32,980 bases of DNA from an uncultured Pirellulales bacterium (GCA_964475805.1 CAYZAH010000001.1:1-32980), one strand, 5' to 3'; shown: positions 11,343-29,157, counted from the stretch's first letter. A program made the numbers and translations. Notes: generated by a model not told the origin, from the letters alone.

Positions 11343-11358
11343 GTTCTATCCCAGATCG

Positions 11359-11379: not shown

Positions 11380-11453
11380 ATCGCACGCGAGCAGTCCCCC
11401 GGTACACGTAGACTCTTCATTAGTTAGTAGCCCACGGACAATCCAAACGGTCT

Positions 11454-12206: not shown

Positions 12207-12209
12207 AGA

Positions 12210-12479: not shown

Positions 12480-12527
12480 AACTTGTGTCTCATATCTTGT
12501 GAATCAAAACTCGTGCACTCGCCCAGG

Positions 12528-13397: not shown

Positions 13398-13924
13398 CTG
13401 TAAATCATCTCCTGGGCCGGTACCGTTGCGGGACCGGGGGTTACGTCCGCCAGCTTCGTGACGTTCTCGTTTGTGCTGCCTATGAGAATACGTCGGTCGC
13501 CTATCTCGATCAGATGCACGGCTCTACGAGGCCCAATGTGAACTGTCTCGACAATCCGAATTTCTTTACCGGGCAACCGGGTGATCCGGGGTAGGAATCT
13601 CTTTGAAACGTACATCGCCGCCACACCGAGAACAGCAACGAACAAAACCGCAAGCATTGCTCTAAGGAAGATTTCTCCGTTGCCCGTGCGATAATCCGAC
13701 CTGTCTGAAAAGTTAAGATCCTTGGCAAATAGACCACCATCTTCATCTGTCCCCGCCGGCTGGGGTTCATTGGGTTCGGCCGTCGACTCCCCTGATACCG
13801 TTCCACCTGCGGACGACCGAGCGGAGCAAACGATCAACGCGCCGTTGCCCAGAGCAGCAATGATCAAAAGAACGACTGTCTTTTTCTTGAATCGAGTCAC
13901 ACTGAAACTCGCGCTACACACCAA
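13394..13924 (-). CDS. fliO: FliO/FliZ-like flagellar export protein (start uncertain)
   Basis: Single-TM protein immediately upstream of fliP. C-terminal IRIVETVHIGPRRAVHLIEIGDRRILIGSTNENVTKLADV is FliO-like. The longest ORF begins at TTG 13924, and the in-frame GTG at 13900 is an alternative. Confidence 0.7.
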   Translation of the reverse strand: MVCSASFSVTRFKKKTVVLLIIAALGNGALIVCSARSSAGGTVSGESTAEPNEPQPAGTDEDGGLFAKDLNFSDRSDYRTGNGEIFLRAMLAVLFVAVLGVAAMYVSKRFLPRITRLPGKEIRIVETVHIGPRRAVHLIEIGDRRILIGSTNENVTKLADVTPGPATVPAQEMIYS

Positions 13925-13978
13925 ATACCATCAATGAGCCGTCACCCGGCGGCGCAAAACAAGCGCCTGTATCAACTG

Positions 13979-13994
13979 AGCAAATAACGTGCCG
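13979..13994 (-). promoter_or_regulatory. Sigma54 (-24/-12) promoter candidate for fliOPQR-flhB
   Basis: The minus strand reads CGGCACGTTATTTGCT compared with the consensus TGGCACG-N4-TTGCW. Spacing is exact and only the first base differs. It lies about 55 nt upstream of the fliO start, in a 172-nt gap. Confidence 0.6.
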
Positions 13995-14068
13995 AAATGC
14001 CGAAAACATGCGTTGACTCAGTTTAGGAGGCAGTGATGAGGTAAAGATCACATGCGCGTGCTGAAAAT

Positions 14069-14087
14069 CTGTCCAAAAACTTGACAG
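14069..14087 (-). terminator. Weak hairpin + U-rich tail just after the motB' stop
   Basis: Minus-strand RNA CUGUC-aaguuuuug-GACAG followed by AUUUUC. The stem is only 5 bp. Confidence 0.25.
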
Positions 14088-14096
14088 GCGCAAAAA

Positions 14097-14876
14097 TTAG
14101 CCGGTCTTCCTCAATACGGCAATAAGGATCTGCGACTTCTTGGAAAACGGGCTGTCTTGATTCGCCCAGTCTCCTCCCGAGCCGGCTCCCCAGGAATAAA
14201 CAGACCACCTGGATTGTTCAGTAAACGAACTCTGCCGGCCCTGTAAACTCGACTGCGAGGACAACGACAGGTTGCTTCGCAGGAAATCCGCCACGACCTT
14301 GGCTCGCCTGGCCGAGAGAAACACTCGTTCTTTCTCAGTTCCACCATCGGACGCCAACCCCAGTACATACAGAATAACGCGTTTGCGACTGGCATCCTGC
14401 CGTAAATCTCGACAGAATCCCGTCAGGAATTGTCTGGCCGACTCATCCAGGCTGTCCCCACCGGGCGAGAAATGAACGTTAGCTACCGAATAGTCGGCCC
14501 TTTCCGCAGCGACCGGTGAAGGGACAATCATTGCCTGTTCCCTGAGCTTTTCACAAATCCGACGTAGCTCTTCAATGTTGGAGTCGATCATCCTGCCGTC
14601 GTCCGACTCATCCGGACTTTCCGTTGGGTATTTGAGCTTAGGATCACCCAAATTCGGTACGTTCGACCGCCCGAAGAGCATACCGAGCCCAATGCATCTG
14701 AGCGACTCTATGAAGGAGTCTCTGCCTTTATCAAAAAGCTCAGGGTCCTGTACGTCCGCGAGGGACAGTAGCATGACGAAGAACGTCAGTAGGAGCGTGA
14801 CCATGTCCGAATAGGTCACGATGTACCCCGGAACCTTTGCCCCCCCCTCCTCGCGTTTCGATTTCCGCCATTTCAA
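14097..14876 (-). CDS. motB: Second MotB-like stator protein (OmpA-like C-terminus)
   Basis: Plug/TM motif GYIVTYSDMVTLLLTFFVMLLSLA with the conserved Asp. OmpA-like C-terminal segment (LSARRAKVVADFL). The TTG start overlaps the stop of the upstream motB (TTGA). Confidence 0.8.
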   Translation of the reverse strand: MKWRKSKREEGGAKVPGYIVTYSDMVTLLLTFFVMLLSLADVQDPELFDKGRDSFIESLRCIGLGMLFGRSNVPNLGDPKLKYPTESPDESDDGRMIDSNIEELRRICEKLREQAMIVPSPVAAERADYSVANVHFSPGGDSLDESARQFLTGFCRDLRQDASRKRVILYVLGLASDGGTEKERVFLSARRAKVVADFLRSNLSLSSQSSLQGRQSSFTEQSRWSVYSWGAGSGGDWANQDSPFSKKSQILIAVLRKTG

Positions 14877-15559
14877 TTGTACACATTCCGCTTCAATAGA
14901 GTGATCTCAACCATGCGTCCGGAGGTCCGGCTCCCTGAACCGTCACGGGCCACAATGCCCGCCGCCGAGATACTGAAGCGATTGGGGTCCATGCTCCGCT
15001 TTTTGGTGAGATAATCCATGATGGCCCATGCTCGCGGCAAGCCCAAGCTCCGGCCGTTTTGCACCTCGGTTGGTCCCGTTTCACTAACCACAACGCGTCC
15101 CGGGACCCTCTGCAGAACCCCCTCCATGAGGTTCATGACGTCTCGGCCTTGTTGCGTGAGAATTGCCCCCCTGCCCCAGAAGACCTTTTGCGACGGGATG
15201 AGAAACACCATGCCGCCGTGGAGATCCTTAAGTCCAGCTTCTTTCATCAGAGCTTCTTCCAACTTTTCAGCTAACGTTGGCTTCTCGCTGCCTTTTTTAC
15301 GCTGGACCTTGTGTTGAATGGGGTCGGAAAAGGTTAGCGCGTCCCTCGGCCTGATTCGCGGTGTGTCCGTGATGCTATTTAATGCCTGAGAGTAGACAAC
15401 TCTCAAGTCCGAAAAGATTTTGTTGTCAAAAGACGAAAAACTCAGAAGGAGCACAAAGAATGTTAACAACAGCGTCATACAGTCACTGAAGGTAACCATC
15501 CATTCCGGGGCGCCGGGCGCCTCATCAGATTCCGGCGGCTTCTTCTTGCGCTTGCTCAT
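14873..15559 (-). CDS. motB: MotB-like stator protein
   Basis: PEWMVTFSDCMTLLLTFFVLLLSFSS with the conserved Asp. C-terminus RAWAIMDYL ... GRMVEITLLKR is OmpA-like. I prefer the ATG at 15559 (MSKRKKK), which overlaps the motA stop as ATGA. The ORF-track start at 15595 would overlap motA by 40 nt. Confidence 0.85.
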   Translation of the reverse strand: MSKRKKKPPESDEAPGAPEWMVTFSDCMTLLLTFFVLLLSFSSFDNKIFSDLRVVYSQALNSITDTPRIRPRDALTFSDPIQHKVQRKKGSEKPTLAEKLEEALMKEAGLKDLHGGMVFLIPSQKVFWGRGAILTQQGRDVMNLMEGVLQRVPGRVVVSETGPTEVQNGRSLGLPRAWAIMDYLTKKRSMDPNRFSISAAGIVARDGSGSRTSGRMVEITLLKRNVYN

Positions 15560-16326
15560 ATTGTTGCCTTGACTTCCTCTCGCCGGCTCTGGCAAATGAA
15601 CGCTTGCATTTTCTCTCGAATCGTCGTCGGATTGTCACCCTCAGCTATCGCGCATATTCCTTCGACGATCATTTCCATCGACGTCGTTTCCGCCTTGGAA
15701 TAAATCCCCAGTTTCCCCGCCAAGGGAATGAAGATCAAGTTGGCGGCAAACGCTCCGTAGAACGTCGTGAGCAACGCGACGGCCATACCGGCACCGATCT
15801 GGTCCGGCGAGGACAGATTCTTGAGCATCTGAACCAGCCCGATGAGCGTCCCGATCATGCCAAAGGCTGGCGCCGCCGCACCCATGAATTCCAGGATTTT
15901 CTTGCCGTCCGAGTGACGGTCTTGAAGGTTATCGATCTCCAGCGATAAGAGGTCCCGGATAACGTCAGAATCCTGTCCATCCACGAGCATCTGCATACCC
16001 TTGACAAAGAACATGTCGTTAATCCTCGGAATCTCCTGCTCCAGAGCCAACGCGCCGTCGCGCCGATTAATGACGGCAAAGTTGATCATGTTCTGTATCA
16101 GCTCCGACGGAGGCGAGATTTTGGTGATGATCGTCTTCTTGATAACGCCAAATATTCCCAAGAACTGAGGCAGAGAAAAATGTATGAGCGTTGAGCACAA
16201 CATACCTCCAACGGTGATCGCCAACGAAGGAATGTGCACAAAGGACTGCCAGCCGCCTCCGACAACAATGGCACCGACCACGACAAGAAAACCAAGAACC
16301 ACGCCCACAACAGTGGCAATATCCAT
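15556..16326 (-). CDS. motA: Flagellar stator protein MotA/PomA family
   Basis: Four-TM MotA/ExbB-type protein (MDIATVVGVVLGFLVV ..., GAAAPAFGMIGTLIGLVQML, MAVALLTTFYGAFAANLIFIPLA). I prefer the ATG at 16326, preceded by GAGGGAGAG. The ORF-track TTG at 16344 is less likely. Confidence 0.92.
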   Translation of the reverse strand: MDIATVVGVVLGFLVVVGAIVVGGGWQSFVHIPSLAITVGGMLCSTLIHFSLPQFLGIFGVIKKTIITKISPPSELIQNMINFAVINRRDGALALEQEIPRINDMFFVKGMQMLVDGQDSDVIRDLLSLEIDNLQDRHSDGKKILEFMGAAAPAFGMIGTLIGLVQMLKNLSSPDQIGAGMAVALLTTFYGAFAANLIFIPLAGKLGIYSKAETTSMEMIVEGICAIAEGDNPTTIREKMQAFICQSRREEVKATI

Positions 16327-16330
16327 AGGA

Positions 16331-17053
16331 CTACTCTCCCTCAACGATTTGTTTCAACCTGTTGCACAAGGCTGCGGCTAGCGAAGGCTCCGAGCCGGCC
16401 AGCTCAGCCAGAACCTTGGCTTTGGTCCGGTCGGTCATGTAATACAGAATCTTGGCCGCGTCGTCGAGGCTTCTGTGCGATCCGTCGACTTCGGTATTCT
16501 GTTCCGACCCTTCTCCACACATATTCGACATTATCTTACTGGCGCTCGTCGCGTCCATCTTGTCGTAGGTCGCTGCGATGGAGACCAGATTGACCTTTTC
16601 CGACACTTCAATCTCCAACCTGCTCTTGAGCAGTTTGTCGCGCTCGCTTTTCAGCGAGGCAACGGTCGAAGCAAGCTCGGTGCGCAGGTTGTTTAGGTTC
16701 TCGATGTCCTCCTTGAGCACATTCTGAGCCACATGCAGCCTCTTTTCTCGCACCTGAAGACCTTTCAGCTTGTCGTCATAGTCCCGCATTTTCTCGCGGA
16801 TACTCTGCACAAGACTCTCAAGCTGTTGCTCCGTCATGCTTTCTTTGGTCGGAGCAGAGCCTTGATCACTAACGCCCATCATACCCGCTTTTGGCCGGAC
16901 AAGCGGCTGTTGGATCCGGCTATCAGCAACCGCGGGCGGCTCGGTTTGATCGGGTTGCTCTGCCGCAGAAGGACTCGTCAGCCACGCGCAGGCGAAGGCC
17001 CCGGCAAAGGCGACCAATCCCGCAGCCGCTATGAGGACCACCTTCTTGATCAT
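16331..17053 (-). CDS. Membrane-anchored coiled-coil flagellar protein with an MgtE_N-like C-terminus (YlxF/FlbB/MotE-like position)
   Basis: N-terminal TM (MIKKVVLIAAAGLVAFAGAF), a long coiled coil, and a C-terminus SIAATYDKMDATSASKIMSNM ... AAKILYYMTDRTKAKVLAEL resembling the MgtE intracellular N-domain fold seen in the gene after fliJ in other flgB-type operons. I prefer the ATG at 17053 (GGAGAG SD) over 17086. Confidence 0.55.
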   Translation of the reverse strand: MIKKVVLIAAAGLVAFAGAFACAWLTSPSAAEQPDQTEPPAVADSRIQQPLVRPKAGMMGVSDQGSAPTKESMTEQQLESLVQSIREKMRDYDDKLKGLQVREKRLHVAQNVLKEDIENLNNLRTELASTVASLKSERDKLLKSRLEIEVSEKVNLVSIAATYDKMDATSASKIMSNMCGEGSEQNTEVDGSHRSLDDAAKILYYMTDRTKAKVLAELAGSEPSLAAALCNRLKQIVEGE

Positions 17054-17063
17054 CGGTGCTCTC

Positions 17064-17510
17064 CTAACTCTGAGTTTTCCGAACAAACGAGACTCCGGCC
17101 CTCTCGTCCAACTCTTTCTGTTCGAGTCTCTCTTGCTCAGCTATGAATTCTTCCCTTGCTTGTGCGCGCAACTTTTCCAAACCCTGTTTGTACCTTCTAA
17201 TCTTCAAGACTTCGGCGACTTTCTCTCGTTGTTGGCGCTCCAGCACGTGTATCTTGTCTTTAAGTTCTTTGATCCGTTCATCGCTTGTCACCGAATGCCT
17301 CAGAAAGAACTCCTGCTTATCCAGCCGGCGTTCCGGATTCTCCCCAGCCAAGCCGTGAATTATGTCTTCCAACATCTTCTGTTGCATCAGCAGCTCCCCA
17401 CGTGTCGCAGCTAACTTCTCGGCCAACTCAAACAACTCCGCCCTGGCCTTCTGCTCTTCCTTTTCCCTGATGTCGAGGACACGCTGTAACCGCCATACAA
17501 AACGTCTCAT
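17064..17510 (-). CDS. fliJ: Flagellar export chaperone/stalk protein FliJ
   Basis: 148-aa all-helical protein, RLQRVLDIREKEEQKARAELFELAEKLAATRGELL, positioned after fliI. Confidence 0.85.
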   Translation of the reverse strand: MRRFVWRLQRVLDIREKEEQKARAELFELAEKLAATRGELLMQQKMLEDIIHGLAGENPERRLDKQEFFLRHSVTSDERIKELKDKIHVLERQQREKVAEVLKIRRYKQGLEKLRAQAREEFIAEQERLEQKELDERAGVSFVRKTQS

Positions 17511-17557
17511 TCAATTTCTCTGCTTCACGCTCAATACTAGGGCACGCCGAACGCCAC

Positions 17558-18922
17558 TCACTGCGCGCGTGAGCTCAATAATCTGTCCCACGACTGGCTG
17601 ATGGACGTCAACCGCCGGACGGTCTCCGAGAATTCCGTTCTTTCGCGCGTCGGCTGAACAAGGAACTCCCGTATCTTATCAATTAGAGCAACAGCTCCAT
17701 CAATTCGGGGATTGCTCCCCGGAGAAAACGCACCGATGTTGATCAGGTCCTCGGCGTCGCGATAGATGGCGTAGATCTCTTTGAGCCTCTGTGCGGCACG
17801 CTTGTGCTCGTCGCTCGCAATGACGGGCATCAAACGGCTGATACTCTGGAGGATATCCACCGCCGGATAGTGACCCCGCTCGGCTAATCTTCTCGATAGA
17901 ACGATATGCCCGTCCAGCAGACTTCGAGCACTGTCGGCCACCGGGTCGCCCAGGTCATCGTTCTCCGCCAGAACCGTGAGAATACCCGTGATACTCCCAC
18001 TCTCGGCACAGCCCAAACGCTCGACAAGCCGGGGCATCAGGGAAAACACACTGGGGCAGTAGCCCTTGGTGGCCGGCGGCTCGCCGGCCGCAAGACCGAT
18101 TTCCCGCTGAGCCTGGGCAAAACGAGTGAGAGAATCCATCATGAAGAGAACGTTTGAGCCTTTGTCTCTGAAATACTCGGCAACCGTGACGGCGACGAAA
18201 GCCGCCTTCACGCGCTGGATGGGAGGAGAATCCGACGCGGCCACGACGACAACACTTCGTGCCAGCCCTTCCGGTCCGAGGTCAGACTCGATAAATTCGC
18301 GAACTTCCCGGCCTCGCTCGCCGATCAGGGCGACCACATTGACATCCGCTTCGCTCGAGTTGGCGATATCGCCGAGCAGGACGCTCTTGCCCACGCCGCT
18401 GCCCGAAAAGATACCCACTCTTTGCCCCTTGCCGCAGGTCAACACGCTGTCTATAGACCGAATGCCGAGGGCCAGAGGACTCACGATCTTTCCACGGCTC
18501 AAAGGCGGCGGGCTACTTGCGTTCAGAGGCTTGATATCAGTACCCGCCAACGGCCCTTTACCATCGATAGGTTCCGCCAGTCCATTGAGAACTCGTCCCA
18601 GAATACGACTGCTCAGTATAATATGGCGCGGCGTAGTTCGCGCCGTCACCGTATCGCCGGGAGATATACCTTCTATATGTTCCAACGGCAATAGGATGAG
18701 ATGGTCGTCCTTGAAGCCGACCACCTCGGCCAGCACACGACGGCCGCGACGAATCTGGATGCCGCACAACTCCCCCAACCCGATCGCCGGGCCGGAAGAT
18801 TCTACCGATTGGCCGGAGACGCTCACCACTAAACCTTGACAGTCCAGCAGATTCACATCGCGAAGTGCCGAATGGAACTTATCAAAATCTATTAGATTAG
18901 GACCAGTCTTTGTTGCGACCAT
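17558..18922 (-). CDS. fliI: Flagellum-specific ATPase FliI
   Basis: Walker A GIFSGSGVGKSVLLG, Walker B VLFMMDSLTRFAQAQRE, F1-beta-like overall. Confidence 0.97.
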   Translation of the reverse strand: MVATKTGPNLIDFDKFHSALRDVNLLDCQGLVVSVSGQSVESSGPAIGLGELCGIQIRRGRRVLAEVVGFKDDHLILLPLEHIEGISPGDTVTARTTPRHIILSSRILGRVLNGLAEPIDGKGPLAGTDIKPLNASSPPPLSRGKIVSPLALGIRSIDSVLTCGKGQRVGIFSGSGVGKSVLLGDIANSSEADVNVVALIGERGREVREFIESDLGPEGLARSVVVVAASDSPPIQRVKAAFVAVTVAEYFRDKGSNVLFMMDSLTRFAQAQREIGLAAGEPPATKGYCPSVFSLMPRLVERLGCAESGSITGILTVLAENDDLGDPVADSARSLLDGHIVLSRRLAERGHYPAVDILQSISRLMPVIASDEHKRAAQRLKEIYAIYRDAEDLINIGAFSPGSNPRIDGAVALIDKIREFLVQPTRERTEFSETVRRLTSISQSWDRLLSSRAQ

Positions 18923-18925
18923 AAC

Positions 18926-19531
18926 TCAGTGTGACCTCTGAAGCGCCTGGCTAACTCGTTCCAAATTCTCCTCGATCAGCGATTTGACAATTCCCTTGGG
19001 GGTCTCGAGCAGGCACTCCGCCCGCCCAATCGTTGGATCGGGTACAAACTTCACACCCGCGAAAGCATCGTCCAGTTCATTCTCCGCAAGAGATTCCGAG
19101 GACGGCTCATTCGATAATGTCTTGCGAAATTGCATATGGTCTTCCGGATTCAGATGCACCACAACATCGTGATGGCTTGGTGCATTCGTGAGCGCTTCTT
19201 TAATGATGGACTCTATCTCGTAGTCACCATTTTCCGTCTTCTGCAGGAGAATCTTTCTGGCAATTTCCACTGAGAGTTTGGCGATTTGGTCTCCGTGGTT
19301 TACAAAGAGCCCGTCATAGAACTCATTCAGCTTACCCGCCGCACTGCGAAGAGCCTGGCAAGTTTGTGTAAGCACTTCTGGTAGCTCACCACTCGTCCCT
19401 TGGAGTTCGCGAGGCGACGAGTCGGGAGTATTAGGCTTTAGCTTCCGAGTTCCGAGTGTCGAGTCCTGAGCGTCGATAACCGTGGCTGAGGCAATCGGTC
19501 GGGATAGATTGATTGTGACTGAATTGGGCAT
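18926..19531 (-). CDS. fliH: Flagellar export protein FliH
   Basis: Positioned between fliG and fliI. The C-terminal segment VVVHLNPEDH ... GRAECLLETPKGIVKSLIEENLERV is FliH-like. Confidence 0.85.
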   Translation of the reverse strand: MPNSVTINLSRPIASATVIDAQDSTLGTRKLKPNTPDSSPRELQGTSGELPEVLTQTCQALRSAAGKLNEFYDGLFVNHGDQIAKLSVEIARKILLQKTENGDYEIESIIKEALTNAPSHHDVVVHLNPEDHMQFRKTLSNEPSSESLAENELDDAFAGVKFVPDPTIGRAECLLETPKGIVKSLIEENLERVSQALQRSH

Positions 19532-19535
19532 CAGA

Positions 19536-20573
19536 CTACTCTTCTACAAACATAAGCTCGCCCTTTTTGTTCATCTCCCGAAGAACCTGGACAATCTCCT
19601 CTCTGGCGTTCTCTATATCCTCCTTTCTGGGAGCGGACATAAGCGATGTCTCCTCGTCGATTGTAGCGACGGCTCGTTCGGAAAGATTGGATCGGATCTT
19701 TTTGGCCACCCCCTCATCGGCTTTTTGCAACGCCAATGCCAGTTTCGTGGCATCGATTCCCCTCAGCGCCTCTTGCAGCGATCTATCCGTCACCTGTGGC
19801 ACATCCGTCCAGACGATCATCAGGTCCGCTACCGTATCGGCGGTCTTGTCGTCTTTTCCCTTGATGGCCTCGAGCAAACCATCCCGCAGCCCTTGGCTGA
19901 GATTGCGCAAGATCACGGCCACTTTTCTTAAGGACTGTTCGGGCCGGTCGGCCGAAGCCTCGTCCGAGCCGCCGGTCGAAATCGCCTTAAGACGTCTGCA
20001 AATGGTCTCTGCGATGCGCGCCTTCGCTTCCATCGTCACCATTTCACGGCCAGCCATTCGATGGATGGCGCTGCGCCGGACTTCCTCGCTTAGAAGCTCC
20101 AGAACTGCCGAACTTTTCTTGACCGACAGTTCCGACAGAACCACGGCCGCCGCTTGCGGATGCTCATCGGCCAAAACAGATGCAATCGCCTGGGGCTCGG
20201 CCGAACGAATCGAAATGAAAGGATCGCGCTTGTTTAGCAAATGTCGTATCTGAGCCTGGATCTGCTCGGTCTTCTCGTGCCCCACGGTACTTCGTAACAT
20301 GTCGTTCAGAAACCTGTTGAGATGGAATTCCTCGCCGGCTCGTAGTGAAGAGCAAAATTGCTGGATGACTTCGGCGCTCTGCTTACCTGTTCTCAGGCCG
20401 GCCGCGTCCAGATAGGCCAACTCGACTGCTAATTCTTGAACCGCTTGAGGGTCAAGCCCCTTGACCAATTCCGCTGCCGTGGCGGCGTCAAGACTCATCA
20501 ACAGCATCGCCGCCTTTTGTTTGCCCGTCAATGCCATCCGTCTATTCCCCGTTCCCTTCGATCCAACTGGCAA
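19536..20573 (-). CDS. fliG: Flagellar motor switch/rotor protein FliG
   Basis: LTGKQKAAMLLMSLD N-terminus, armadillo-like repeats, and a torque-helix region near the C-terminus. The real start may be the ATG at 20537 (MALTGKQKAA), just after the fliF stop, rather than 20573. Confidence 0.93.
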   Translation of the reverse strand: MPVGSKGTGNRRMALTGKQKAAMLLMSLDAATAAELVKGLDPQAVQELAVELAYLDAAGLRTGKQSAEVIQQFCSSLRAGEEFHLNRFLNDMLRSTVGHEKTEQIQAQIRHLLNKRDPFISIRSAEPQAIASVLADEHPQAAAVVLSELSVKKSSAVLELLSEEVRRSAIHRMAGREMVTMEAKARIAETICRRLKAISTGGSDEASADRPEQSLRKVAVILRNLSQGLRDGLLEAIKGKDDKTADTVADLMIVWTDVPQVTDRSLQEALRGIDATKLALALQKADEGVAKKIRSNLSERAVATIDEETSLMSAPRKEDIENAREEIVQVLREMNKKGELMFVEE

Positions 20574-22065
20574 ACAACTGCCTGACGCGTTCGGGATTGC
20601 TCTCTAATGCGCGCGCGATCTGTCGGCGCAAGAACAAAGGCTGCGAAACCTCGGAGCCGCCTGGAGCCAAACCTGGAAGAAGACCGGCTGCGTCCTCACT
20701 CCCCGGCGGCTGGCCCGATTCCGCCTTGAGCCGGACCTTTTTCTTTGCCCCTTTGAACATGCGCAAAACGAGCAGCGCGCAAATCGCCATGATCCCCAAC
20801 GACGCCTGCCCGGCGATCGCCAGATAATCGAGACCGCCCGAGACGTCCGCGTCCGCCAACAGATTGGGCGCAGGTTGAAATTTGGCGCTAACAACTTTGA
20901 GCGAGTCTCCGCCCGCAAGATTCAGGCCAAGCGCGTTTTCGATCAGCTTTTCGACGTCATTGGCATCCATGATCTTCGCCGTGACCCCGTTCGCATCGGC
21001 CGCATTCGCATCAGCCACCGATAAGTCAACAACCGCGGCCACGGACAGAGACATGATCTCGCCGGGCAGAACCACTTCTTGCGTCACCGTCTTGCCCACC
21101 TGGTATTCGGTGACAATGGTCTCGTCTTTCTTGGTGCTCCCCGGCGTCGCTGCGCCGCTCGCAACGGTCCCATTGCTCGCTGCGATTTCTGAGCCGTTTG
21201 TAATCTCTTCCTTTGTGGCGACACCTTTCGGCTCGTACTTCTCCGTGACGGTGTTCACGCTATTCATGTCAAGCACGGCGTGGACCCTCACCTTTGCCCG
21301 TCCCGGACCCAGGACGGTTGTGAGCAACTCTTCGACTTTGTTCTGCAAACTCTGCTCCACTCTTTCTCTGTAGTCTTGTACGGTGCCGGCCCCGCTGGCC
21401 ATTTCCTGGCCCGATTTGCCGGAGAGGAGACGTCCCTGACTGTCAATGACCGTCACGTTGTCCGAGGTAAGACCCTCGACGCTGCCCGAGACCAAATGCG
21501 TGATGGCCGCGACGTTCAATGCGCTCAGTCGATAGCCCGGCTGAAGTCGAAGAACCACGGAGGCCGTCGTCTTGCCCGCTTCCGACGTGAAGAGCGTTTG
21601 TTCCGAACGCACAATATGAACCCGGGCGTGAGCCACGCCGTCGATCATCTGGATACTCTTGGCAAGCTCTTCCTGGAGCGCGCGTTTGAGGTTAACGCTC
21701 TGGACAAAGGGGCTGACGCCGATCTTTTCATTCTCAAATATCTTATATCCCCCCTGCTCGCCCGCCGGCAGCCCGTCTCTCGCCAAATCCAGGCGAAGCT
21801 GATAGACCTTCTCTTTCGGAACGTAGATACTTGTCCCGCCGTTCCGCAATTCATAGGCAACGCCCTGTTCGGCGACCTTCTCTACAACTTCAGCCGCCTC
21901 TTCAGGAGCAAGCTCCTGGTAGAGCATCCTCATATCGGGCCGGCGAGCCCAGTAGACGAGCAGCACACTGACAAGGCCGAAAGTCACGATAATTGCAACA
22001 AGTAAAGCTCGCTGCACGAGACTTATCTTTTGCCAAATGGCCCTTATCTTCTGGAGAAAACTCAT
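20542..22065 (-). CDS. fliF: Flagellar MS-ring protein FliF
   Basis: N-terminal TM followed by MRMLYQELAPEEAAEVVEKVAEQGVAYELRNGGTSIYVPKEKVYQLRLDLARDGLP, and a C-terminal TM plus FliG-binding tail. Confidence 0.95.
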   Translation of the reverse strand: MSFLQKIRAIWQKISLVQRALLVAIIVTFGLVSVLLVYWARRPDMRMLYQELAPEEAAEVVEKVAEQGVAYELRNGGTSIYVPKEKVYQLRLDLARDGLPAGEQGGYKIFENEKIGVSPFVQSVNLKRALQEELAKSIQMIDGVAHARVHIVRSEQTLFTSEAGKTTASVVLRLQPGYRLSALNVAAITHLVSGSVEGLTSDNVTVIDSQGRLLSGKSGQEMASGAGTVQDYRERVEQSLQNKVEELLTTVLGPGRAKVRVHAVLDMNSVNTVTEKYEPKGVATKEEITNGSEIAASNGTVASGAATPGSTKKDETIVTEYQVGKTVTQEVVLPGEIMSLSVAAVVDLSVADANAADANGVTAKIMDANDVEKLIENALGLNLAGGDSLKVVSAKFQPAPNLLADADVSGGLDYLAIAGQASLGIMAICALLVLRMFKGAKKKVRLKAESGQPPGSEDAAGLLPGLAPGGSEVSQPLFLRRQIARALESNPERVRQLFASWIEGNGE

Positions 22066-22092
22066 GGAGCTTCTTTCCTATGAAGTGCTAAA

Positions 22093-22173
22093 ATGACACG
22101 TCAGTGTCATCCCGAGCGAAACCGAGGGATCTGACTCGTGAAAATAAGATTGCTTCGCTGCGCTCGCAATGAC
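22093..22173. repeat. Compound palindromic (REP/MITE-like) element in the fliE-fliF spacer
   Basis: Hairpin ATGACAC-gtca-GTGTCAT (22093-22110). Then two inverted ~26-nt units: GTCATCCCGAGCGAAACCGAGGGATC (22106-22131), and 22148-22173, whose reverse complement is GTCATTGCGAGCGCAGCGAAGCAATC (18/26 identical by my hand alignment). Each unit is self-complementary at its ends (ATCCC/GGGAT and ATTGC/GCAAT). Six-frame translation gives the peptide LLRCARNDR. Confidence 0.7.
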
Positions 22174-22183
22174 AGGGTCGCAA

Positions 22184-22228
22184 TCACTTTAGTCATTTTA
22201 GTCACTTTAGCTCACTTTAGTCACTTTG
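22184..22228. repeat. Five tandem copies of the 9-mer TCACTTTAG (one variant TCATTTTAG, one 1-nt insertion, last copy truncated)
   Basis: Read directly: TCACTTTAG TCATTTTAG TCACTTTAG c TCACTTTAG TCACTTTG. It ends 1 nt before the fliE stop codon at 22230. Confidence 0.85.
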
Positions 22229-22229
22229 C

Positions 22230-22583
22230 CTACAGCGGCATATTCATCGTCTGTTTATACGCTTCGATAAGCTTGTTCCTGACACCGACCAGCAGCTTGA
22301 AACTCGCATCAGCCTTGGCGGCGGCGGAGGCCACGGAAGTAACGTCTTCGCTCTTGCCGGACAGAAAGTCTTTAATGGACATGTCCGATGATTGCTGGAT
22401 ATCATCAACCTGCGAAAGATAGCTTTTGATCGCGTTGGCAAATTGTGTCTTGTTCCCGTTGGCACCGCCCGCCTTTGCGGTCCCAAGAGATTCCAGGCCG
22501 GCGCCGGCTCGGGCGGCGTCCGCCTCCCAGATGCTCTTCATGGATTCGACAGACTTGCCTACGTTGGCATCAAAGTTAACCAT
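22230..22583 (-). CDS. fliE: Flagellar hook-basal body protein FliE
   Basis: 117 aa. C-terminus AAAKADASFKLLVGVRNKLIEAYKQTMNMPL is the typical FliE signature. Confidence 0.93.
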   Translation of the reverse strand: MVNFDANVGKSVESMKSIWEADAARAGAGLESLGTAKAGGANGNKTQFANAIKSYLSQVDDIQQSSDMSIKDFLSGKSEDVTSVASAAAKADASFKLLVGVRNKLIEAYKQTMNMPL

Positions 22584-22591
22584 AAGTTCAC

Positions 22592-23083
22592 CTATCGGAG
22601 TAATTCGAGCGTAGTTTCAACCATCTGCTGATAGCGTTTCAAGACGGCTACGTTGGCTTGATACACGCGCGTCGCAACATTGAGGTTCATCATCTCGATG
22701 GGCAAATTAACATTCGGCATGGAGACGTATCCGCTCTCGTCCGCCAGAGGATTGCCCGGATCTAATATTTTCTGAAAATCGCTCATATCAGTGAAGACCT
22801 GGTCCGCCGTGACACCGCCCATCTCGTCATCCGCTCGGAGGATCACTTCGTGTCTTCGGTAAGGCTCGCCCTGGCCCGCGTCGACGGTACGTGCATTGGC
22901 GACGTTCGATGAAATCATCTCCATCTGTCGGCTCTGCGCCCGCAGGCCGGAAATGGCTATATCTATGGGCCTGAAACTACCATCAACTTCCACTTGCTTT
23001 GGTCCCTTCTCAAGTTGACTAATGTCTATTGAACGGCTCGTATGGAACGATCTGTCATCAACGCGGAAATAGTCAATAGTCAA
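22592..23083 (-). CDS. flgC: Flagellar proximal rod protein FlgC
   Basis: ISGLRAQSRQMEMISSNVANARTV N-terminal rod motif, and C-terminus ANVAVLKRYQQMVETTLELLR. Confidence 0.95.
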   Translation of the reverse strand: MTIDYFRVDDRSFHTSRSIDISQLEKGPKQVEVDGSFRPIDIAISGLRAQSRQMEMISSNVANARTVDAGQGEPYRRHEVILRADDEMGGVTADQVFTDMSDFQKILDPGNPLADESGYVSMPNVNLPIEMMNLNVATRVYQANVAVLKRYQQMVETTLELLR

Positions 23084-23085
23084 TC

Positions 23086-23454
23086 CTACTGCGTTCCGAC
23101 CGCCAGCTCGATCTGGTTGTATTTTTTGGCGAGCAATCGGACAAACGCACGGTGGCGAATTGTGTTCCTAATCATTTGGCCGACCTCGGTTTCGTAGTTG
23201 ACGTCGTTACCGTTGGACTTCACCGGGGTCTTCTCGGGCCGGTAGATTTCGGGCGTGATCTTCCCAAGGTCAACCGCGTCGCCCGATTTGACACACTTGG
23301 CAAGCAGTTCCTCAAACTTGACGTCGATCCTCCGGTAGCCGGGAGTCTCAAGATTGGCGATGTTGCTGGTTATCGCTCGCTGTCTGAGACTTTCGGCCTT
23401 TATGCCGGCCTCGATAAGATCGACTATGTTGTTCGTTCCGGACATCCGGATCAC
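23086..23454 (-). CDS. flgB: Flagellar proximal rod protein FlgB
   Basis: SLRQRAITSNIANLETPGYRRIDVKFEELL. The longest ORF starts at GTG 23454. The ATG at 23445 sits 8 nt after GAGG (GAGGTGATCCGGATG) and is the more likely start. Confidence 0.93.
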   Translation of the reverse strand: MIRMSGTNNIVDLIEAGIKAESLRQRAITSNIANLETPGYRRIDVKFEELLAKCVKSGDAVDLGKITPEIYRPEKTPVKSNGNDVNYETEVGQMIRNTIRHRAFVRLLAKKYNQIELAVGTQ

Positions 23455-23866: not shown

Positions 23867-23895
23867 CATTCCCTCCTGTCTTGTAAGGTGTGCGC

Positions 23896-25620
23896 ATGAA
23901 CGTCAGCTTGATGATGATGGATACTGTTTGCAGCGGGCCTGTTCGCGGTGCTCCGACACCCTCGAAGGCGCGGACAGACGACGATCACAAGCCGTTCTCT
24001 CTGATTCGGGAGAACATGTCACCCGAAGTCCGTCCATGGGAAAACGTAACGTCCAATAAAACCGCAAGAGTCGGCGAGGGAAACTCCACTGAAAAGGCAT
24101 TGCGCGAATCTGACGATGCGACCTCAAGAAAAACGGATGCCGGAGCCCCGCCGACAGACCGAGATGACCACGCCCCGAAGGAAACAGACTTAGTTTCCGA
24201 CACGAATGTGCAACCGGACTCGGAAGTGATCTCGCGAACCGAGGAGTGTAAGCCTGAAGAACAAAGCAACGCAGTGACAAACGAGCAGCCTCTCGAAATC
24301 GAGGTGTTTTCGTCAAATCCCGCGTTGAAACGCGGTGACTCTATTCAGGTATCGGATGAGGCTTCGGAACCGATTGCTACGGAGGCCATCGCGGCGGAGG
24401 CAAGCCAGGGAACCCCGGAAGGTGTCCCGATGGACGCATCTGGGAATACGCCTGCGGCATCTGATAGTTCCAAGATGGAACAAAACGTCAATAGCCCGAC
24501 TCCGGCGGTGCCAAACGGAACAACTGCTCACGTGATAGGCAAAACCAACACGCAAAGCGATTCAGAATCAGCGGACGGCGCTTCTGCGGGAACTGGCGGG
24601 ACAAGTGCATCTCGCGAGAGTACACCCACAGACGGAGATAGTGCGCCTGCCATCGAGGTTCCGCAACAACTTGGATCGAATACGAAAGACTCGATCTTCA
24701 ATAGCCTGGTGGATCCTGAGAGTGAGACAACGGGCAACCTCCAAGAAGCGATGTCGGATCAAGCCAAGACTTCTGAAACACAACTTCACGTCACGAAGGG
24801 TGCCTCAGACAAAGATGTGTCAGTTGGCGAGACTGTGTCTAAACAAAACGATCCAACCGATGAAGAGTCCGCGGACCCTGAAGACCATCTCTTGGATGCG
24901 AATCCTGAACCGCGAGCCTCCAACCCACGATTCGAGGACGGCACACCCTCGACCCAACAGAACCATTCATCCGATGATAATGGCCCACAAGCAAGATCAG
25001 AGCAGACATTCACTCAGAGCGCCGCGAACCGATTCGTGGCCTACGATTCACGATTCTCCGATTCAAGCGTGGAAGCAAACACTCCGACAACCGCCCAAAA
25101 ACCGCAAATGGAAAACTCCGAATGGGCCTCGTCCGGCCAGACCTCTACAGACGTCGGCAAACAGGTTCTCGAATCGATTCAGAGTACCCTGAGCGGCCGA
25201 GGCTCAGACCAGCAGATCACCGTCCAGCTCAATCCGCCCGAACTGGGCAGAGTCTCTATACGATTCCAAGAACAAAACAACGAGCTGACCGGCCATCTGG
25301 AGGTCAACAAGCCGGAGACCCGAGCAGAAATCGAGCACGCGCTTCCACAAATGATACGCAATCTTGCCGATTGCGGCATCCACATCAAGCGGATCGACGT
25401 TACGCTCTCACAGCACGATCGGCCGCAATACGGGGCGACGGGCGACTCCTTGCCGCAGAATAGCTGGTCCCAACAGGGAAATTCCGCGGATTCACAAGCG
25501 TGGGACAAAGATGCTTATACGGACGGGGTCAGTGAATGGTCGCCGAACAACACGTACGAGCGAATCAGCGAGTTGCAGGAGATTCCGGCGGGTGACGGCT
25601 CCGTCAATGTGCTGATATGA
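23896..25620 (+). CDS. fliK: Flagellar hook-length control protein FliK
   Basis: C-terminal Flg_hook-type domain: QITVQLNPPELGRVSIRFQEQNNELTGHLEVNKPETRAEIEHALPQMIRNLADCGIHIKRIDV. The long N-terminal region is rich in S/T/D/E/P and low in complexity. I prefer ATG 23896 (AAGGTG SD 5 nt upstream) over GTG 23890. Confidence 0.88.
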   Translation: MNVSLMMMDTVCSGPVRGAPTPSKARTDDDHKPFSLIRENMSPEVRPWENVTSNKTARVGEGNSTEKALRESDDATSRKTDAGAPPTDRDDHAPKETDLVSDTNVQPDSEVISRTEECKPEEQSNAVTNEQPLEIEVFSSNPALKRGDSIQVSDEASEPIATEAIAAEASQGTPEGVPMDASGNTPAASDSSKMEQNVNSPTPAVPNGTTAHVIGKTNTQSDSESADGASAGTGGTSASRESTPTDGDSAPAIEVPQQLGSNTKDSIFNSLVDPESETTGNLQEAMSDQAKTSETQLHVTKGASDKDVSVGETVSKQNDPTDEESADPEDHLLDANPEPRASNPRFEDGTPSTQQNHSSDDNGPQARSEQTFTQSAANRFVAYDSRFSDSSVEANTPTTAQKPQMENSEWASSGQTSTDVGKQVLESIQSTLSGRGSDQQITVQLNPPELGRVSIRFQEQNNELTGHLEVNKPETRAEIEHALPQMIRNLADCGIHIKRIDVTLSQHDRPQYGATGDSLPQNSWSQQGNSADSQAWDKDAYTDGVSEWSPNNTYERISELQEIPAGDGSVNVLI

Positions 25621-25947: not shown

Positions 25948-27564
25948 ATGCAAGCGACAAGCGTTGGTGAAGCTGTGAATACCGCCGTGCGCGAGTATGA
26001 GGCGGGACGTTTGGCGCCGGCCGAACGCGCGTGTCGGGCGGTCCTCCAAAGCCATCCTCAGAACGCTCATGCCTTGCACCTGCTCGGGGCCATCACATAT
26101 AAGAAGGGACTCCACAACCAGGCGATCGAGTTGGTTCGAGAAGCGATTGCGCAAGACCAGGACGTACCCCAATTCCACAACACCCTCGGAGCCGCGTTGC
26201 GCGCCGCCGGGCAGTTCGAGGAAGCCATTGCCGCTTATGAGCGGGCGATATCACTCGACCCTGAATACCTCCGCGCCTACATCAACATGGGCAATGCCCT
26301 CGTTTTCCAGGGCCGATACGCCCGTGCGGCAGAGAAGTACCGTCACGTGATATCGCTGGACCCGACGTGCGTCGAAGCCTACGACTGTATGGCTGTGGCG
26401 CTTCAATACCAAGGACAATATGACGCGGCGATTGTCGCGTGCAATCAGGCCTTAGCGCTCGATCCCGATGACGTGGAGACCTACAACACAATGGCCTGCG
26501 TGCTTATGAGGCAAGGTCGCTGCGCTGAAGCGATTGAGACATACAAGCGCGTCCTTCAAATCAAACCCGACTATGCCAAGGCCCACTGCAACCTGGGGAT
26601 GGCGCTTCTGCTCAGTGGAAGACTCAGGGAGGGGTGGGCTGAGTATAGATGGCGAGTCCGTACCGGAAACGTAGCGTGCTCGCCGCGTTATGACTCGCCT
26701 TGCTGGGACGGTTCGCCTTTTGTGGGCAAAAGACTCGTCGTGCACTTCGAGCAGGGCTTCGGCGACAACATCCAATTCATACGATACCTGCCGATGGTGA
26801 AGCGTCGCGGCGGCACGGTCATCTGCGAGATGCTGAGACCCCTGGTGGGCCTCTTGCGAGGATTTCCGGGAATTGACGAATTGGTAGAGGCTTCGTCCAC
26901 GGGCAAGTCGTCCATAAACAGCGACCTGCACGTACCCTTGTTAGAACTTCCAAGGATATTCGGGACGGCTTTGCACACCATACCCTGCGACGTTCCTTAC
27001 CTTCATGCCGACCTGTTGAAAGCCGAATACTGGCGGAAGAAACTCTCTATGCCGGGATTCAAGGTAGGGATCGTGTGGGCCGGGACACCCGCTCACATGG
27101 AGAATAGGGCTCGCTCTTGCCGTTTGAGCCACTTCCTGCGACTGTCAAAGGTCCCCGGCATGCAGCTTATCGGACTGCAAAAGGGTGCCGCCGCCGGACA
27201 AGCTGATGAAATGGCGACAAGGATGTCAGTCATGAATCTCGCTGATGAGCTCCATGATTTCACAGATACGGCCGCGGTGATCGCCAACCTGGACCTGGTG
27301 ATCTCGGTGGATACCGCCGTTCTGCACTTGGCCGGGGCGATGGCCAAGCCGGCGTGGGCAGTGCTGTCTTTCGCACCCGACTGGCGATGGATGCTGGATC
27401 GAGACCACAGCCTCTGGTATCCGAGCATCAGGCTATTTAGGCAAAGCAAATACGGGGATTGGGGCGGCGTCTTCGAGCGTATAGCGGAGGAATTGGCGAT
27501 ACTAAGCGACTCGATGCCCGTAACTCGTGGCTCGAGCACCGAGATTCAAGTCTTCACAAAATGA
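25948..27564 (+). CDS. TPR-repeat + GT9-like (GT-B) glycosyltransferase with FlmG-type architecture; candidate flagellin glycosyltransferase
   Basis: About seven TPRs (nt ~25960-26690; e.g. AHALHLLGAITYKKGLHNQAIELVREAI, AYINMGNALVFQGRYARAAEKY). The C-terminal domain carries GT9-like motifs VVHFEQGFGDNIQFIRYLP, VGIVWAG, and LVISVDTAVLHLAGAMAKPAWAVLSFAPDWRWM. I prefer the ATG at 25948; the ORF-track GTG is at 25921. It ends 248 nt upstream of the flagellin gene. Confidence 0.8.
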   Translation: MQATSVGEAVNTAVREYEAGRLAPAERACRAVLQSHPQNAHALHLLGAITYKKGLHNQAIELVREAIAQDQDVPQFHNTLGAALRAAGQFEEAIAAYERAISLDPEYLRAYINMGNALVFQGRYARAAEKYRHVISLDPTCVEAYDCMAVALQYQGQYDAAIVACNQALALDPDDVETYNTMACVLMRQGRCAEAIETYKRVLQIKPDYAKAHCNLGMALLLSGRLREGWAEYRWRVRTGNVACSPRYDSPCWDGSPFVGKRLVVHFEQGFGDNIQFIRYLPMVKRRGGTVICEMLRPLVGLLRGFPGIDELVEASSTGKSSINSDLHVPLLELPRIFGTALHTIPCDVPYLHADLLKAEYWRKKLSMPGFKVGIVWAGTPAHMENRARSCRLSHFLRLSKVPGMQLIGLQKGAAAGQADEMATRMSVMNLADELHDFTDTAAVIANLDLVISVDTAVLHLAGAMAKPAWAVLSFAPDWRWMLDRDHSLWYPSIRLFRQSKYGDWGGVFERIAEELAILSDSMPVTRGSSTEIQVFTK

Positions 27565-27668
27565 GATTTTTTTTGCGGCTTTTACGTATCTTGCCTGTAT
27601 TATCGATCTTAGTCTCCGCCGAATTACCGGTCCAACGATTTTGCCCCTATTTGCCTGCCAGAAATCCC

Positions 27669-27695
27669 TTAAGTTTCCGTTATCGCCCTCGATAA
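27669..27695 (+). promoter_or_regulatory. Sigma28 (FliA)-type promoter of the flagellin gene
   Basis: TTAAGTTT-N11-CTCGATAA compared with TAAAGTTT-N11-GCCGATAA. Spacing is exact, the -35 matches 7/8, and the CGATAA core is intact. It lies about 118 nt upstream of the ATG. AAGGAG SD at 27799-27804. Confidence 0.7.
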
Positions 27696-27812
27696 TGACC
27701 ATTGAAGTAGCAGTGGCCGTTGTGCGTGTTGAATGTTTCAGGACCGACATCCTCAGGGGCTTTCAACGAGGCCACGGAAACGTGTCTGGTACAGTTTTAA
27801 GGAGCCAAAGAT

Positions 27813-28625
27813 ATGTTATCAATCAAGACCAACGCCATGGCGGCAAATGCTGCTCGGCACTTAGGAAACACTTACGGCGCCCTTGCTCAGTCGGTCGAGA
27901 GGCTGTCGTCAGGCCAGCGTATCAACAGCGCCAAGGATGACGCCGCCGGCTTGGCAGTCCGAGAACTGATGCGAGCCGACATCGCCGTACTCCAACAGGG
28001 CGCTCGTAATGCACAGGACGCGATCAGTATGGTACAAGTTGCAGAAGGCGGCATGCAGACAATCAATGATCTGCTCGTAAGGATGAAGCAGTTGGCTGAG
28101 CAGGCGGGTACAGGGACGTATTCTGCAGCGCAACGGTCTCTCTTGAACAACGAGTTCGACGAATTGGCCAATGAAATTGATCGCATTGCAGGGTCGGCCA
28201 CGTTCAACGGCGTCAGCTTGCTCAATAGCGCCAGTGGCACCATATCCGTGATGTTTGGCGATGTAACGGACCGCATCACCATCAACACCACTAACATGAC
28301 TCAGTCCGCGCTTTCCATCAACACTCTGAGCATCAACCAAGCAGCCAGTGCGCAGGCGGCCTTGACGACTTTGGCCACGGCCATCAATACAGCGAATTCT
28401 GCTCGGGCAGCATTCGGTGCGAAGATGAACCGTCTTGACAATACCGTCAACGTCATCAATGTACAGGTCGAGAATCTTACGGCATCAGAATCTCGGATTT
28501 CTGACGTCGATGTGGCTACCGAAATGGCCACCATGACAAGAAACCAAGTATTGGCCCAAGCCGGTGTGGCCATGTTGGCGCAAGCCAATGCCGTGCCGCA
28601 GATGGCATTGAGTCTCCTGAGATAA
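27813..28625 (+). CDS. fliC: Flagellin (minimal D0/D1-only form, 270 aa)
   Basis: N-terminus MLSIKTNAMAANAARHLGNTYGALAQSVERLSSGQRINSAKDDAAGLAV and C-terminus MTRNQVLAQAGVAMLAQANAVPQMALSLLR. The central segment is short and Ser/Thr-rich (SASGTISVMFGDVTDRITINTTNMTQSALSINTLSINQ). Confidence 0.97.
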   Translation: MLSIKTNAMAANAARHLGNTYGALAQSVERLSSGQRINSAKDDAAGLAVRELMRADIAVLQQGARNAQDAISMVQVAEGGMQTINDLLVRMKQLAEQAGTGTYSAAQRSLLNNEFDELANEIDRIAGSATFNGVSLLNSASGTISVMFGDVTDRITINTTNMTQSALSINTLSINQAASAQAALTTLATAINTANSARAAFGAKMNRLDNTVNVINVQVENLTASESRISDVDVATEMATMTRNQVLAQAGVAMLAQANAVPQMALSLLR

Positions 28626-28635
28626 TCGCCATCGT

Positions 28636-28731: not shown

Positions 28732-28797
28732 TTTAGCCCCGAAAATTCGGGATCTTCACACTCGAAGATATAGAACCTGGTTTCAAGGAGCGATGAA

Positions 28798-29157
28798 ATG
28801 CAGGGAATCAAGGCATACCAGGATAGTGTGGTGACCACACAGAGCAGGGGTCGTCTCATCGTCCTATTATATGACGGCGCCATCAAGTTCATGAAGCTGG
28901 CGATCAAGGAACTGGAAGCGAACAACTACGAAGCCAAGGGGCGATACATAAACAAGGCCCTGGACATCATCAATGAGCTCAACGCTATCCTGGATATGAA
29001 CGCCGGAGGAGAAATGGCCTCGAATCTTCGCAAACTCTACTGTTTCATGATCAAGCACCTCACGGAGGCCAACATTAAACGCGATCCCGAGATGATCCGA
29101 GAGGTCATCAGGCTCATGGAAGACTTGAATCAAAGCTGGAAAGCCATATCCGGCTGA
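28798..29157 (+). CDS. fliS: Flagellin-specific export chaperone FliS
   Basis: 119-aa four-helix protein: YQDSVVTTQSRGRLIVLLYDGAIKFMKLA ..., INKALDIINELNAILDM, and SNLRKLYCFMIKHLTEANIKRDPEMIREVIRLMEDL. AAGGAG SD. Confidence 0.93.
   Translation: MQGIKAYQDSVVTTQSRGRLIVLLYDGAIKFMKLAIKELEANNYEAKGRYINKALDIINELNAILDMNAGGEMASNLRKLYCFMIKHLTEANIKRDPEMIREVIRLMEDLNQSWKAISG

Follow-up and report, generated by a model that had tools for sequence, protein, structure and literature searches.

In a 32,980-nt stretch of DNA from an uncultured Pirellulales bacterium (GCA_964475805.1, CAYZAH010000001.1, positions 1-32980; the whole of this stretch is called the window below), a flagellar gene cluster was recognized by open reading frame (ORF) calls and Pfam matches. 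Between fliK and a flagellin gene of this cluster lies a gene that combines tetratricopeptide repeats (TPRs) with a glycosyltransferase domain, and its product is most likely a cytoplasmic flagellin O-glycosyltransferase built like FlmG of Caulobacter. As judged by sequence comparison, it is a genuine but distant relative of FlmG and not its orthologue, and it constitutes a moderate extension of the known FlmG system. Since membership in its family alone implies no flagellar role, the case for a flagellin glycosyltransferase rests on the homology to FlmG and on conserved synteny.

The gene extends from an ATG at position 25948 to a stop codon ending at 27564 and encodes 538 residues (547 if an alternative in-frame GTG at 25921 is used). 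An earlier annotation made without database searches, referred to below as the sequence-only reading, had described the same ORF, but its length of 539 residues includes the stop codon. Strong Pfam TPR matches span residues ~10-230, and an AlphaFold model of the full-length protein, calculated on 53 homologues (predicted local distance difference test score, pLDDT, 90.1; predicted template modelling score 0.85), exhibits 14 helices in residues 6-238, i.e., seven TPRs, the approximate number already proposed. By sequence, these TPRs are closest in the PDB to those of OGT and SPINDLY. The repeats are followed in the models by two Rossmann-like lobes, and neither a signal peptide nor a membrane segment is found in the model. 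Because the TPR domain of FlmG binds flagellin (PMC7591256), the TPR domain of the Pirellulales protein would, by analogy, be its flagellin-binding module. The protein is 71.5% identical to its syntenic orthologue in a related contig (L002).

Concerning the catalytic domain, the Pfam profile of glycosyltransferase family GT9 (PF01075) matches at 26.7 bits, compared to a gathering cut-off of 22, and a precomputed match to this profile is also present in most close homologues. When the domain was modelled alone (pLDDT 88.5) and compared by Foldseek, GT9 structures filled ranks 1-8 and 10 (expectation value, E, 4e-8 to 6e-6; template modelling score, TM, 0.49-0.57), with 3TOV, 1PSW (WaaF) and 2GT1, 2H1H and 6DFE (WaaC) on top, and TibC (4RAP, 4RB4) followed at rank 13 and below (E ~5e-5, TM 0.48-0.51). 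In agreement with this, the profile of the family aligned to a four-sequence GT9 alignment with 95.9% probability (hhalign, E 5.9e-9); single-sequence comparisons by hhalign were weak (66% against WaaC, 27% against WaaF). The GT9-like GT-B domain of the sequence-only reading is thus corroborated by a profile match above the cut-off and by its nearest structures, and the comparison with GT-B transferases that it had proposed reveals a relationship in which GT9 is nearest and TibC lower.

The predicted active site comprises one motif in each lobe, and the motifs quoted by the sequence-only reading are present. In the N-lobe motif EQGFGD, the pair G-D273 is placed by the profile-profile alignment on G12-D13 of WaaC, in which D13 is the proposed catalytic base (its role is described in PMC5713226), and E268, Q269, G270, G272 and D273 are invariant across the 53 homologues. 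In the C-lobe, D455-T-A-V-L-H460 aligns with D261-T-G-L-S-H266 of WaaC and is an exact fit to the heptosyltransferase signature D(T/S)(G/A)XXH, of which D261 and H266 contact O3 of the heptose (PMC3559599); D455, T456 and H460 are invariant in the same set of homologues. Replacement of either aspartate in WaaC (D13A, D261A) decreases activity by factors of thousands (PMC3559599, PMC5713226). By alignment, D273 is likely the catalytic base of the Pirellulales protein, and the catalytic pocket, for the possible absence of which the sequence-only reading had allowed, is retained in the form of equivalents of D13 and of D(T/S)(G/A)XXH.

For a direct comparison, Caulobacter FlmG (596 aa) was retrieved from the genome of Caulobacter vibrioides (L001) via a published primer (PMC7591256, supplement). 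BLASTP aligned the full-length proteins collinearly across both domains (27% identity, E 4e-40), and the catalytic domains alone matched over the entire domain length (30% identity, E 4e-29); the homology is therefore not an artefact of the TPRs. Equally to FlmG, the Pirellulales protein is one soluble protein with N-terminal TPRs and a C-terminal GT-B domain, and both contain the motifs EQGxGD (EQGLGD in FlmG), LAGA and WYP. The gene is also similarly placed in Caulobacter crescentus and Brevundimonas subvibrioides, i.e., beside flagellins of ~270 aa that consist of the domains D0/D1 only; flmG lies within 5 kb of three flagellin genes of ~273-278 aa. For FlmG, experiments have shown that flagellin is bound by the TPR domain and that donor specificity resides in the GT-B domain (PMC7591256; bioRxiv 10.1101/2022.03.25.485807), to which the choice between pseudaminic acid (Pse) and legionaminic acid (Leg) as donor was mapped (bioRxiv 10.1101/2022.03.25.485807).

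There are, however, differences between the two proteins: they belong to different phyla and are only 27-30% identical, the Pirellulales protein is ~60 residues shorter and has seven TPRs, and it is accompanied by giant multidomain glycosyltransferases and, within the window, not by a nonulosonic-acid pathway. It has a Pfam GT9 match, whereas FlmG has none. The same holds for the FlmG-proper subfamily, delimited here by searching with the catalytic domain of FlmG (NCBI name 'flagellar protein FlbA'), in which a precomputed PF01075 match was found for 0 of the top 120 results. All 19 sequences of FlmG-proper examined read G(F/P)(S/A)NA(T/S/A)xN at the site of DTAVLH. The full C-lobe motif of this subfamily, G(F/P)(S/A)NA(T/S/A)xN-(L/I)-(A/G)-(A/G)-A, was derived in the present analysis and not taken from the literature; the Pirellulales protein deviates from it and reads SVDTAVLHLAGA. 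Its D-T...H form is found in 11 of 11 sequences of its own clade and in both of the paralogues scored (consensus SVDT(A/S)xxH). The designation "FlmG-type" of the sequence-only reading is accordingly justified as regards homology over both domains, the GT-B fold and the linkage to flagellin, but not in the sense of an FlmG orthologue, as the C-lobe signature differs.

Since D(T/S)(G/A)XXH is kept here and lost in 19/19 examined sequences of FlmG-proper, the Pse/Leg chemistry of FlmG is not simply transferable. The residues that differ occupy positions which contact the sugar in GT9 enzymes, and we therefore infer a donor different from that of FlmG: it is probably not cytidine monophosphate (CMP)-pseudaminic or CMP-legionaminic acid, but heptose or another nucleoside diphosphate (NDP)-sugar.

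The second line of evidence is gene order. Named homologues of the TPR-glycosyltransferase and of ORF1, the first of two giant ORFs at the beginning of the window, are found in Planctomycetota, mostly in Sedimentisphaerales and Phycisphaerae. The closest homologues of the former (56-78% identity in the catalytic domain) are situated in the same position, with the order fliK – (paralogue + GT2-like gene) – orthologue – flagellin of ~270 aa – fliS in two contigs (L003, L005) and fliK – orthologue – GT4 – flagellin – fliS in another (L007). The orthologue is preceded by fliK in all related loci examined, and the partner that most consistently adjoins it is the flagellin gene. Because the same order recurs in independent contigs, the arrangement is not due to chance. 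Linkage to flagellar genes was found, across three lineages, in all but one of the seven related contigs examined; more distant members are situated in a contig of Nitrospina beside flagellin, FlaF and FlbT, and in a genome of Scalinduaceae beside fliK, flgD and flgE. In the Nitrospina locus (L008, 5847-12440), the FlmG-like gene is, moreover, bordered on both sides by a gene of the TPR plus GT41 (OGT-like) type, with a GT4-TPR gene close by, such that different classes of TPR-glycosyltransferases co-occur there beside one flagellin.

Between fliK and the orthologue, L002, L003 and L005 as well as the shorter contigs L004 and L006 possess a second FlmG-like paralogue of 542-598 aa, beside which a GT2-like gene of 264-272 aa is found in the same five contigs. 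The window contains no intact copy of the paralogue and of the GT2-like gene; what is left is a TPR-only ORF of 66 codons, which starts inside the stop codon of fliK. Its best match is the L002 paralogue at residues 49-113 (40% identity, E 3e-14), to which its DNA is 73% identical across 92 nt, and by these alignments it is a relic of the second FlmG-like paralogue. The paralogue is nearer to Caulobacter FlmG (E 1e-53) than is the protein retained in the window.

The flagellin gene starts with an ATG at 27813, exactly 248 nt after the TPR-glycosyltransferase gene, which is the spacing given by the sequence-only reading. Its product of 270 aa consists of Flagellin_N (residues 4-139) and Flagellin_C (186-269) with ~46 residues between them, i.e., of D0/D1 only. 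Ser/Thr (S/T) residues constitute 31% of residues 136-190 and 13% of the rest of the protein; the 38-aa loop quoted previously starts at residue 139 and contains 13 of them, and the description as a minimal flagellin with an S/T-rich loop applies. Aligned with the flagellins of the orthologous loci and with a Caulobacter flagellin, it falls into the same minimal size class as the Caulobacter flagellins.

A sigma-28-like site is situated 143 nt upstream of the flagellin ATG and is the sole match in the window at ≤3 mismatches (chance expectation 0.17); in 4/4 loci compared, the flagellin ATG is preceded at a distance of 130-143 nt by an element xCGATAA. By this consensus match, separate transcription units are implied for the glycosyltransferase and the flagellin. 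The glycosyltransferase gene is probably transcribed with fliK, before the flagellin gene, which would fit an enzyme needed before its substrate, as reported for Caulobacter. The flagellin leader of ~115 nt yielded no Rfam match at E ≤ 1, the fold of the 5' untranslated region is not more stable than that of shuffled sequence (z -0.64), and scans for sigma-70 promoters and terminators over nt 25400-29300 gave matches at chance level.

Taking these observations together, we infer flagellin as the acceptor, and likewise the function of the TPRs, the donor class and the order of the enzymes. The seven N-terminal TPRs would bind flagellin that is newly made or unfolded, and the GT-B domain would use a nucleotide-activated donor to place a sugar on Ser/Thr residues of the short central flagellin segment, with D273 acting as base and D455, T456 and H460 holding the donor sugar. 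The transfer would occur before the FliS-assisted export of flagellin, and the glycan would probably be extended or supplemented by the multidomain glycosyltransferases encoded upstream of fliD.

These large enzymes are ORF1 and ORF2. ORF1 continues beyond the 5' boundary of the window, as had been implied by the sequence-only reading: nt 3-62 contain no stop codon, and in an alignment with the orthologue P0393 (1,921 aa), nt 3 corresponds to residue 736. Orthologues of ORF1 comprise 1,920-1,970 aa, with methyltransferase and GT2 domains in their N-terminal parts. The part within the window contains, in this order, the tail of a methyltransferase, a GT9 domain, a GT2 domain, TPRs and a degenerate GT9 C-lobe. 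The GT9 domain at residues ~150-500 is clear (PF01075 60.5 bits, motif ETGLAH), whereas residues ~920-1159 match the GT9 C-lobe only (Pfam E 0.019; hhalign 90%, E 1.4e-6) and possess a degenerate motif (SSGTATL). The three GT9-like modules counted previously in the window can therefore be found, but they are of unequal strength. A comparison of the family profile with the C-terminus of ORF1 by hhalign aligned the TPRs only. BLASTP of the catalytic domain of the TPR-glycosyltransferase yielded a single match of 42 residues at the GT9 motif of ORF1 (E 0.04) and nothing in ORF2, such that the GT9-like modules of the window are not recent duplicates of each other. ORF2 is composed of GT11-like, GT2, GT4 and GT2 domains with short TPR stretches.

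In a related contig (L012, 1-15766), orthologues of ORF1 (74% identical) and ORF2 are situated between a sugar-nucleotide block and fliD. The block encodes epimerase/dehydratases, a dTDP-sugar isomerase, E1/transketolase-like enzymes, a short-chain dehydrogenase and a TPR-methyltransferase, which suggests a flagellar glycosylation island whose pathway supplies deoxy-sugars or branched sugars to the glycan, at least in part. The 10 kb preceding the ORF1 orthologue of L012 do not contain a nonulosonic-acid synthase gene, and neither L012 nor the window yielded a gene of the gmhA or hldE type. The division of labour proposed by the sequence-only reading, with priming by the TPR-glycosyltransferase and elaboration by the giant enzymes, would be plausible, the latter part on the basis of gene context, namely the position upstream of fliD and the sugar block of L012.

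Several points weigh against the proposed role as flagellin O-glycosyltransferase. Concerning the catalytic domain, the PF01075 match covers only residues 418-469 (profile positions 153-205 of 247), and neither the domain nor the family profile matched any PDB entry by sequence, such that only the comparison of folds is informative. The equivalent of K192 of WaaC could not be placed with confidence, as the alignment is unreliable in this part; judged by position alone, the invariant R389 may take its place. Concerning the donor, there are no genes for heptose or nonulosonic-acid synthesis among the ORFs of the window, and the island in L012 points to deoxy- or branched sugars. The family is, furthermore, so large that membership alone is no proof of a flagellar role. 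Finally, the evidence for this role is computational and consists of the homology to FlmG, the fold, the conservation of the motifs and the conserved gene order.

The combination of TPRs and a GT9-like lobe in ORF1 could itself act on flagellin, and this is relevant to a different reading, in which the protein is a flagellum-associated glycosyltransferase without a priming role: it would extend a glycan begun by another enzyme, or modify FliD, the hook protein or FliK. The initiator could then be ORF1, with its TPRs and GT9-like lobe, or, in the relatives, the paralogue that is lost here. Both ORF1 and ORF2 hold TPR stretches of their own, relatives possess two FlmG-like paralogues and a GT2-like gene at this place, and the gene follows directly after fliK and is probably transcribed apart from the flagellin gene. 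Because of the TPRs and GT9-like lobe of ORF1 and of the paralogue and GT2-like gene in relatives, more than one enzyme could act directly on flagellin. On the other hand, the TPR plus GT-B architecture of FlmG acts directly on flagellin (PMC7591256), the flagellin gene is the most consistent neighbour of the orthologues, and it is the paralogue that was lost in the window, whereas the copy discussed here is intact. We consider a non-priming role unlikely, though it is the most probable of the alternatives.

Less likely again is a general TPR-glycosyltransferase that acts on a non-flagellar substrate, i.e., on an envelope glycan or some other protein, and merely lies within a flagellar cluster. 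The core of lipopolysaccharide (LPS) is the classical target of GT9 enzymes, the family has very many members from a broad range of taxa, some with several copies of the domain, and a close relative from a Desulfobacterales genome has no flagellar gene within 8 kb. This reading is countered by the flagellar linkage in six of seven contigs from three lineages, by the homology to FlmG across both domains and by the absence of a signal peptide or membrane segment from the model. That the protein is a non-catalytic flagellin-binding or regulatory protein with a retained glycosyltransferase-like fold is very improbable: TPR proteins of flagellar loci can be chaperones or regulators, but the base and the positions of the sugar-binding signature are invariant in the 53 homologues and align with those WaaC residues whose mutation causes the drop in activity by thousands.

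Retaining the function as flagellin O-glycosyltransferase as the preferred one, the protein can be compared to other known systems. WaaC and WaaF (2GT1, 2H1H, 6DFE, 1PSW; also 3TOV) are the best structural neighbours of its catalytic domain and have the equivalents of D13 and D(T/S)(G/A)XXH in common with it. They are, however, only 12-14% identical to it, with a partial Pfam match, they possess a surface for binding lipid A-Kdo in place of a TPR domain for acceptor recognition, and they are encoded in an LPS and not in a flagellar context. TibC and AAH, of the bacterial autotransporter heptosyltransferases (BAHT), are likewise cytoplasmic GT9-related GT-B enzymes, which O-glycosylate Ser of a secreted protein and thus constitute a precedent for protein O-heptosylation. 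The likeness to them is structural only, as phmmer and profile searches gave no match to TibC, and the Pirellulales protein was therefore not assigned to BAHT; TibC, moreover, is an iron-containing dodecamer without TPRs, the acceptor of which is an autotransporter passenger domain.

With GT41 (OGT, SPINDLY), the protein has in common a TPR superhelix that would present protein substrates to a GT-B domain. The top Foldseek matches of the full-length model are indeed SPINDLY and OGT, but via the TPRs (root-mean-square deviation 13-23 Å); PF13844 is lacking, and Foldseek with the catalytic domain alone leads to GT9, with no OGT in the top 50, such that an assignment to GT41 was rejected. Maf enzymes (MAF_flag10) do the same job in many bacteria, and Maf-1 of Shewanella also binds flagellin by a TPR domain (bioRxiv 10.1101/2023.12.03.569772). 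Their catalytic domain is, in contrast, of the GT-A type and unrelated in sequence and fold, and their TPR domain is C-terminal; Pfam detects no Maf domain in the Pirellulales protein, which is hence not a Maf-type enzyme.

The family to which the catalytic domain belongs is extensive: searched with the domain as encoded by nt 26620-27561, it comprises 41,038 representatives at 50% identity (E ≤ 1e-3), or 19,160 at E ≤ 1e-30. In some proteins of ~1,000-3,100 aa (P0241-P0390), the domain occurs in 2-6 tandem copies. Databases label the members only as TPR proteins, and a function in flagellin glycosylation would be the first functional lead for this family of about 41,000 sequence clusters. To our knowledge, FlmG represents one of only two classes of dedicated flagellin glycosyltransferases. 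The literature describes FlmG as confined to Caulobacterales, and our literature searches revealed no FlmG-like or GT9-type flagellin glycosyltransferase in Planctomycetes. On the evidence of the alignments, the protein described here is placed in a branch sister to FlmG that keeps a heptosyltransferase-type pocket, and the homologues in planctomycete-like, Nitrospina and anammox (Scalinduaceae) flagellar loci indicate that the FlmG design may be far more widespread. The difference between D-T-x-x-x-H here and S/A-N-x-x-x-N in FlmG suggests the site of donor specificity; studies of FlmG had narrowed this site down no further than to the GT-B domain as a whole.

A broader proposition is doubtful and is put forward only tentatively: that there is a large branch of TPR-guided cytoplasmic flagellin O-glycosyltransferases, extending over several phyla, sister to FlmG and with the donor pocket of heptosyltransferases retained, the members of which put heptose or another non-sialic NDP-sugar directly on Ser/Thr of flagellin as the priming step. 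If this were true, the sugar would prime a complex glycan, possibly with branched sugars, that is built by the giant glycosyltransferases, flagellin glycosylation of the FlmG type would be widespread and not confined to Caulobacterales, and FlmG-proper would be a derived offshoot that was retooled for nonulosonic acids.

Table 1. Location of the genes, domains and motifs discussed, counted from the first nucleotide of the window.
Feature	Position (nt)	Strand	Evidence
ORF1, 3' two-thirds of a multidomain enzyme of ~1,900 aa	1..3542	+	Pfam, orthologue alignment
ORF2, multi-glycosyltransferase of 1,392 aa	3546..7724	+	Pfam
fliD, filament cap, immediately 3' of ORF1 and ORF2	7836..10184	+	PF02465, PF07195
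flhB, fliR, fliQ, fliP, fliO (window order)	first part of block 10269..23454	−	
two motB-like genes, motA, 251-aa ORF, fliJ, fliI, fliH (window order, after fliO)	same block, continued	−	
fliG, fliF, fliE, two rod genes (window order, after fliH)	same block, last part, to 23454	−	
fliK, hook-length control, same-strand upstream neighbour of the TPR-glycosyltransferase gene	23890..25620	+	PF02120
TPR remnant, 66 codons	25617..25817	+	Pfam TPR_11, TPR_17
TPR-glycosyltransferase gene	25948..27564	+	ORF, Pfam TPR families and PF01075
TPR domain, aa 6-238, 14 helices (7 TPRs)	25963..26661	+	DSSP on model, Pfam
GT-B catalytic domain, aa ~253-522, two Rossmann-like lobes	26704..27513	+	model, Foldseek
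N-lobe motif EQGFGD, aa 268-273	26749..26766	+	translation, profile alignment
C-lobe motif DTAVLH, aa 455-460	27310..27327	+	translation, WaaC alignment
sigma-28-like promoter, TTAAGTTT-N11-CTCGATAA	27669..27695	+	consensus match only
flagellin, 270 aa, presumed acceptor	27813..28625	+	Pfam Flagellin_N, Flagellin_C
fliS, flagellin export chaperone	28798..29157	+	PF02561, E 3e-40

Some further features of the cluster (Table 1) may be mentioned. In FliK, only the C-terminal Flg_hook domain (residues 438-510) is recognisable, and the N-terminal ~430 residues are acidic, rich in Ser, Thr and Pro and of low complexity. The two motB-like genes are arranged in tandem (14097-14876 and 14873-15595, minus strand) downstream of motA (15556-16344); a MotB plug is present in both, and an OmpA-like domain is detectable in the distal copy only. 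The 251-aa ORF between motA and fliJ (16331-17086, minus strand) belongs to no Pfam family and gave only weak NCBIfam matches, including one to the spirochaete collar protein FlbB at E 0.006. Beyond fliS, an ORF of 614 aa (29304-31148, minus strand) encodes an oxidoreductase of the Gfo/Idh/MocA type and is probably over-extended: because a twin-arginine signal is located at residues 171-199, the start is likely near residue 162 (~nt 30660). This shorter version would abolish the apparent overlap of 267 nt with the convergently listed gene at 30882-32510 (plus strand), which encodes a protein with a transglutaminase core and a beta-propeller.

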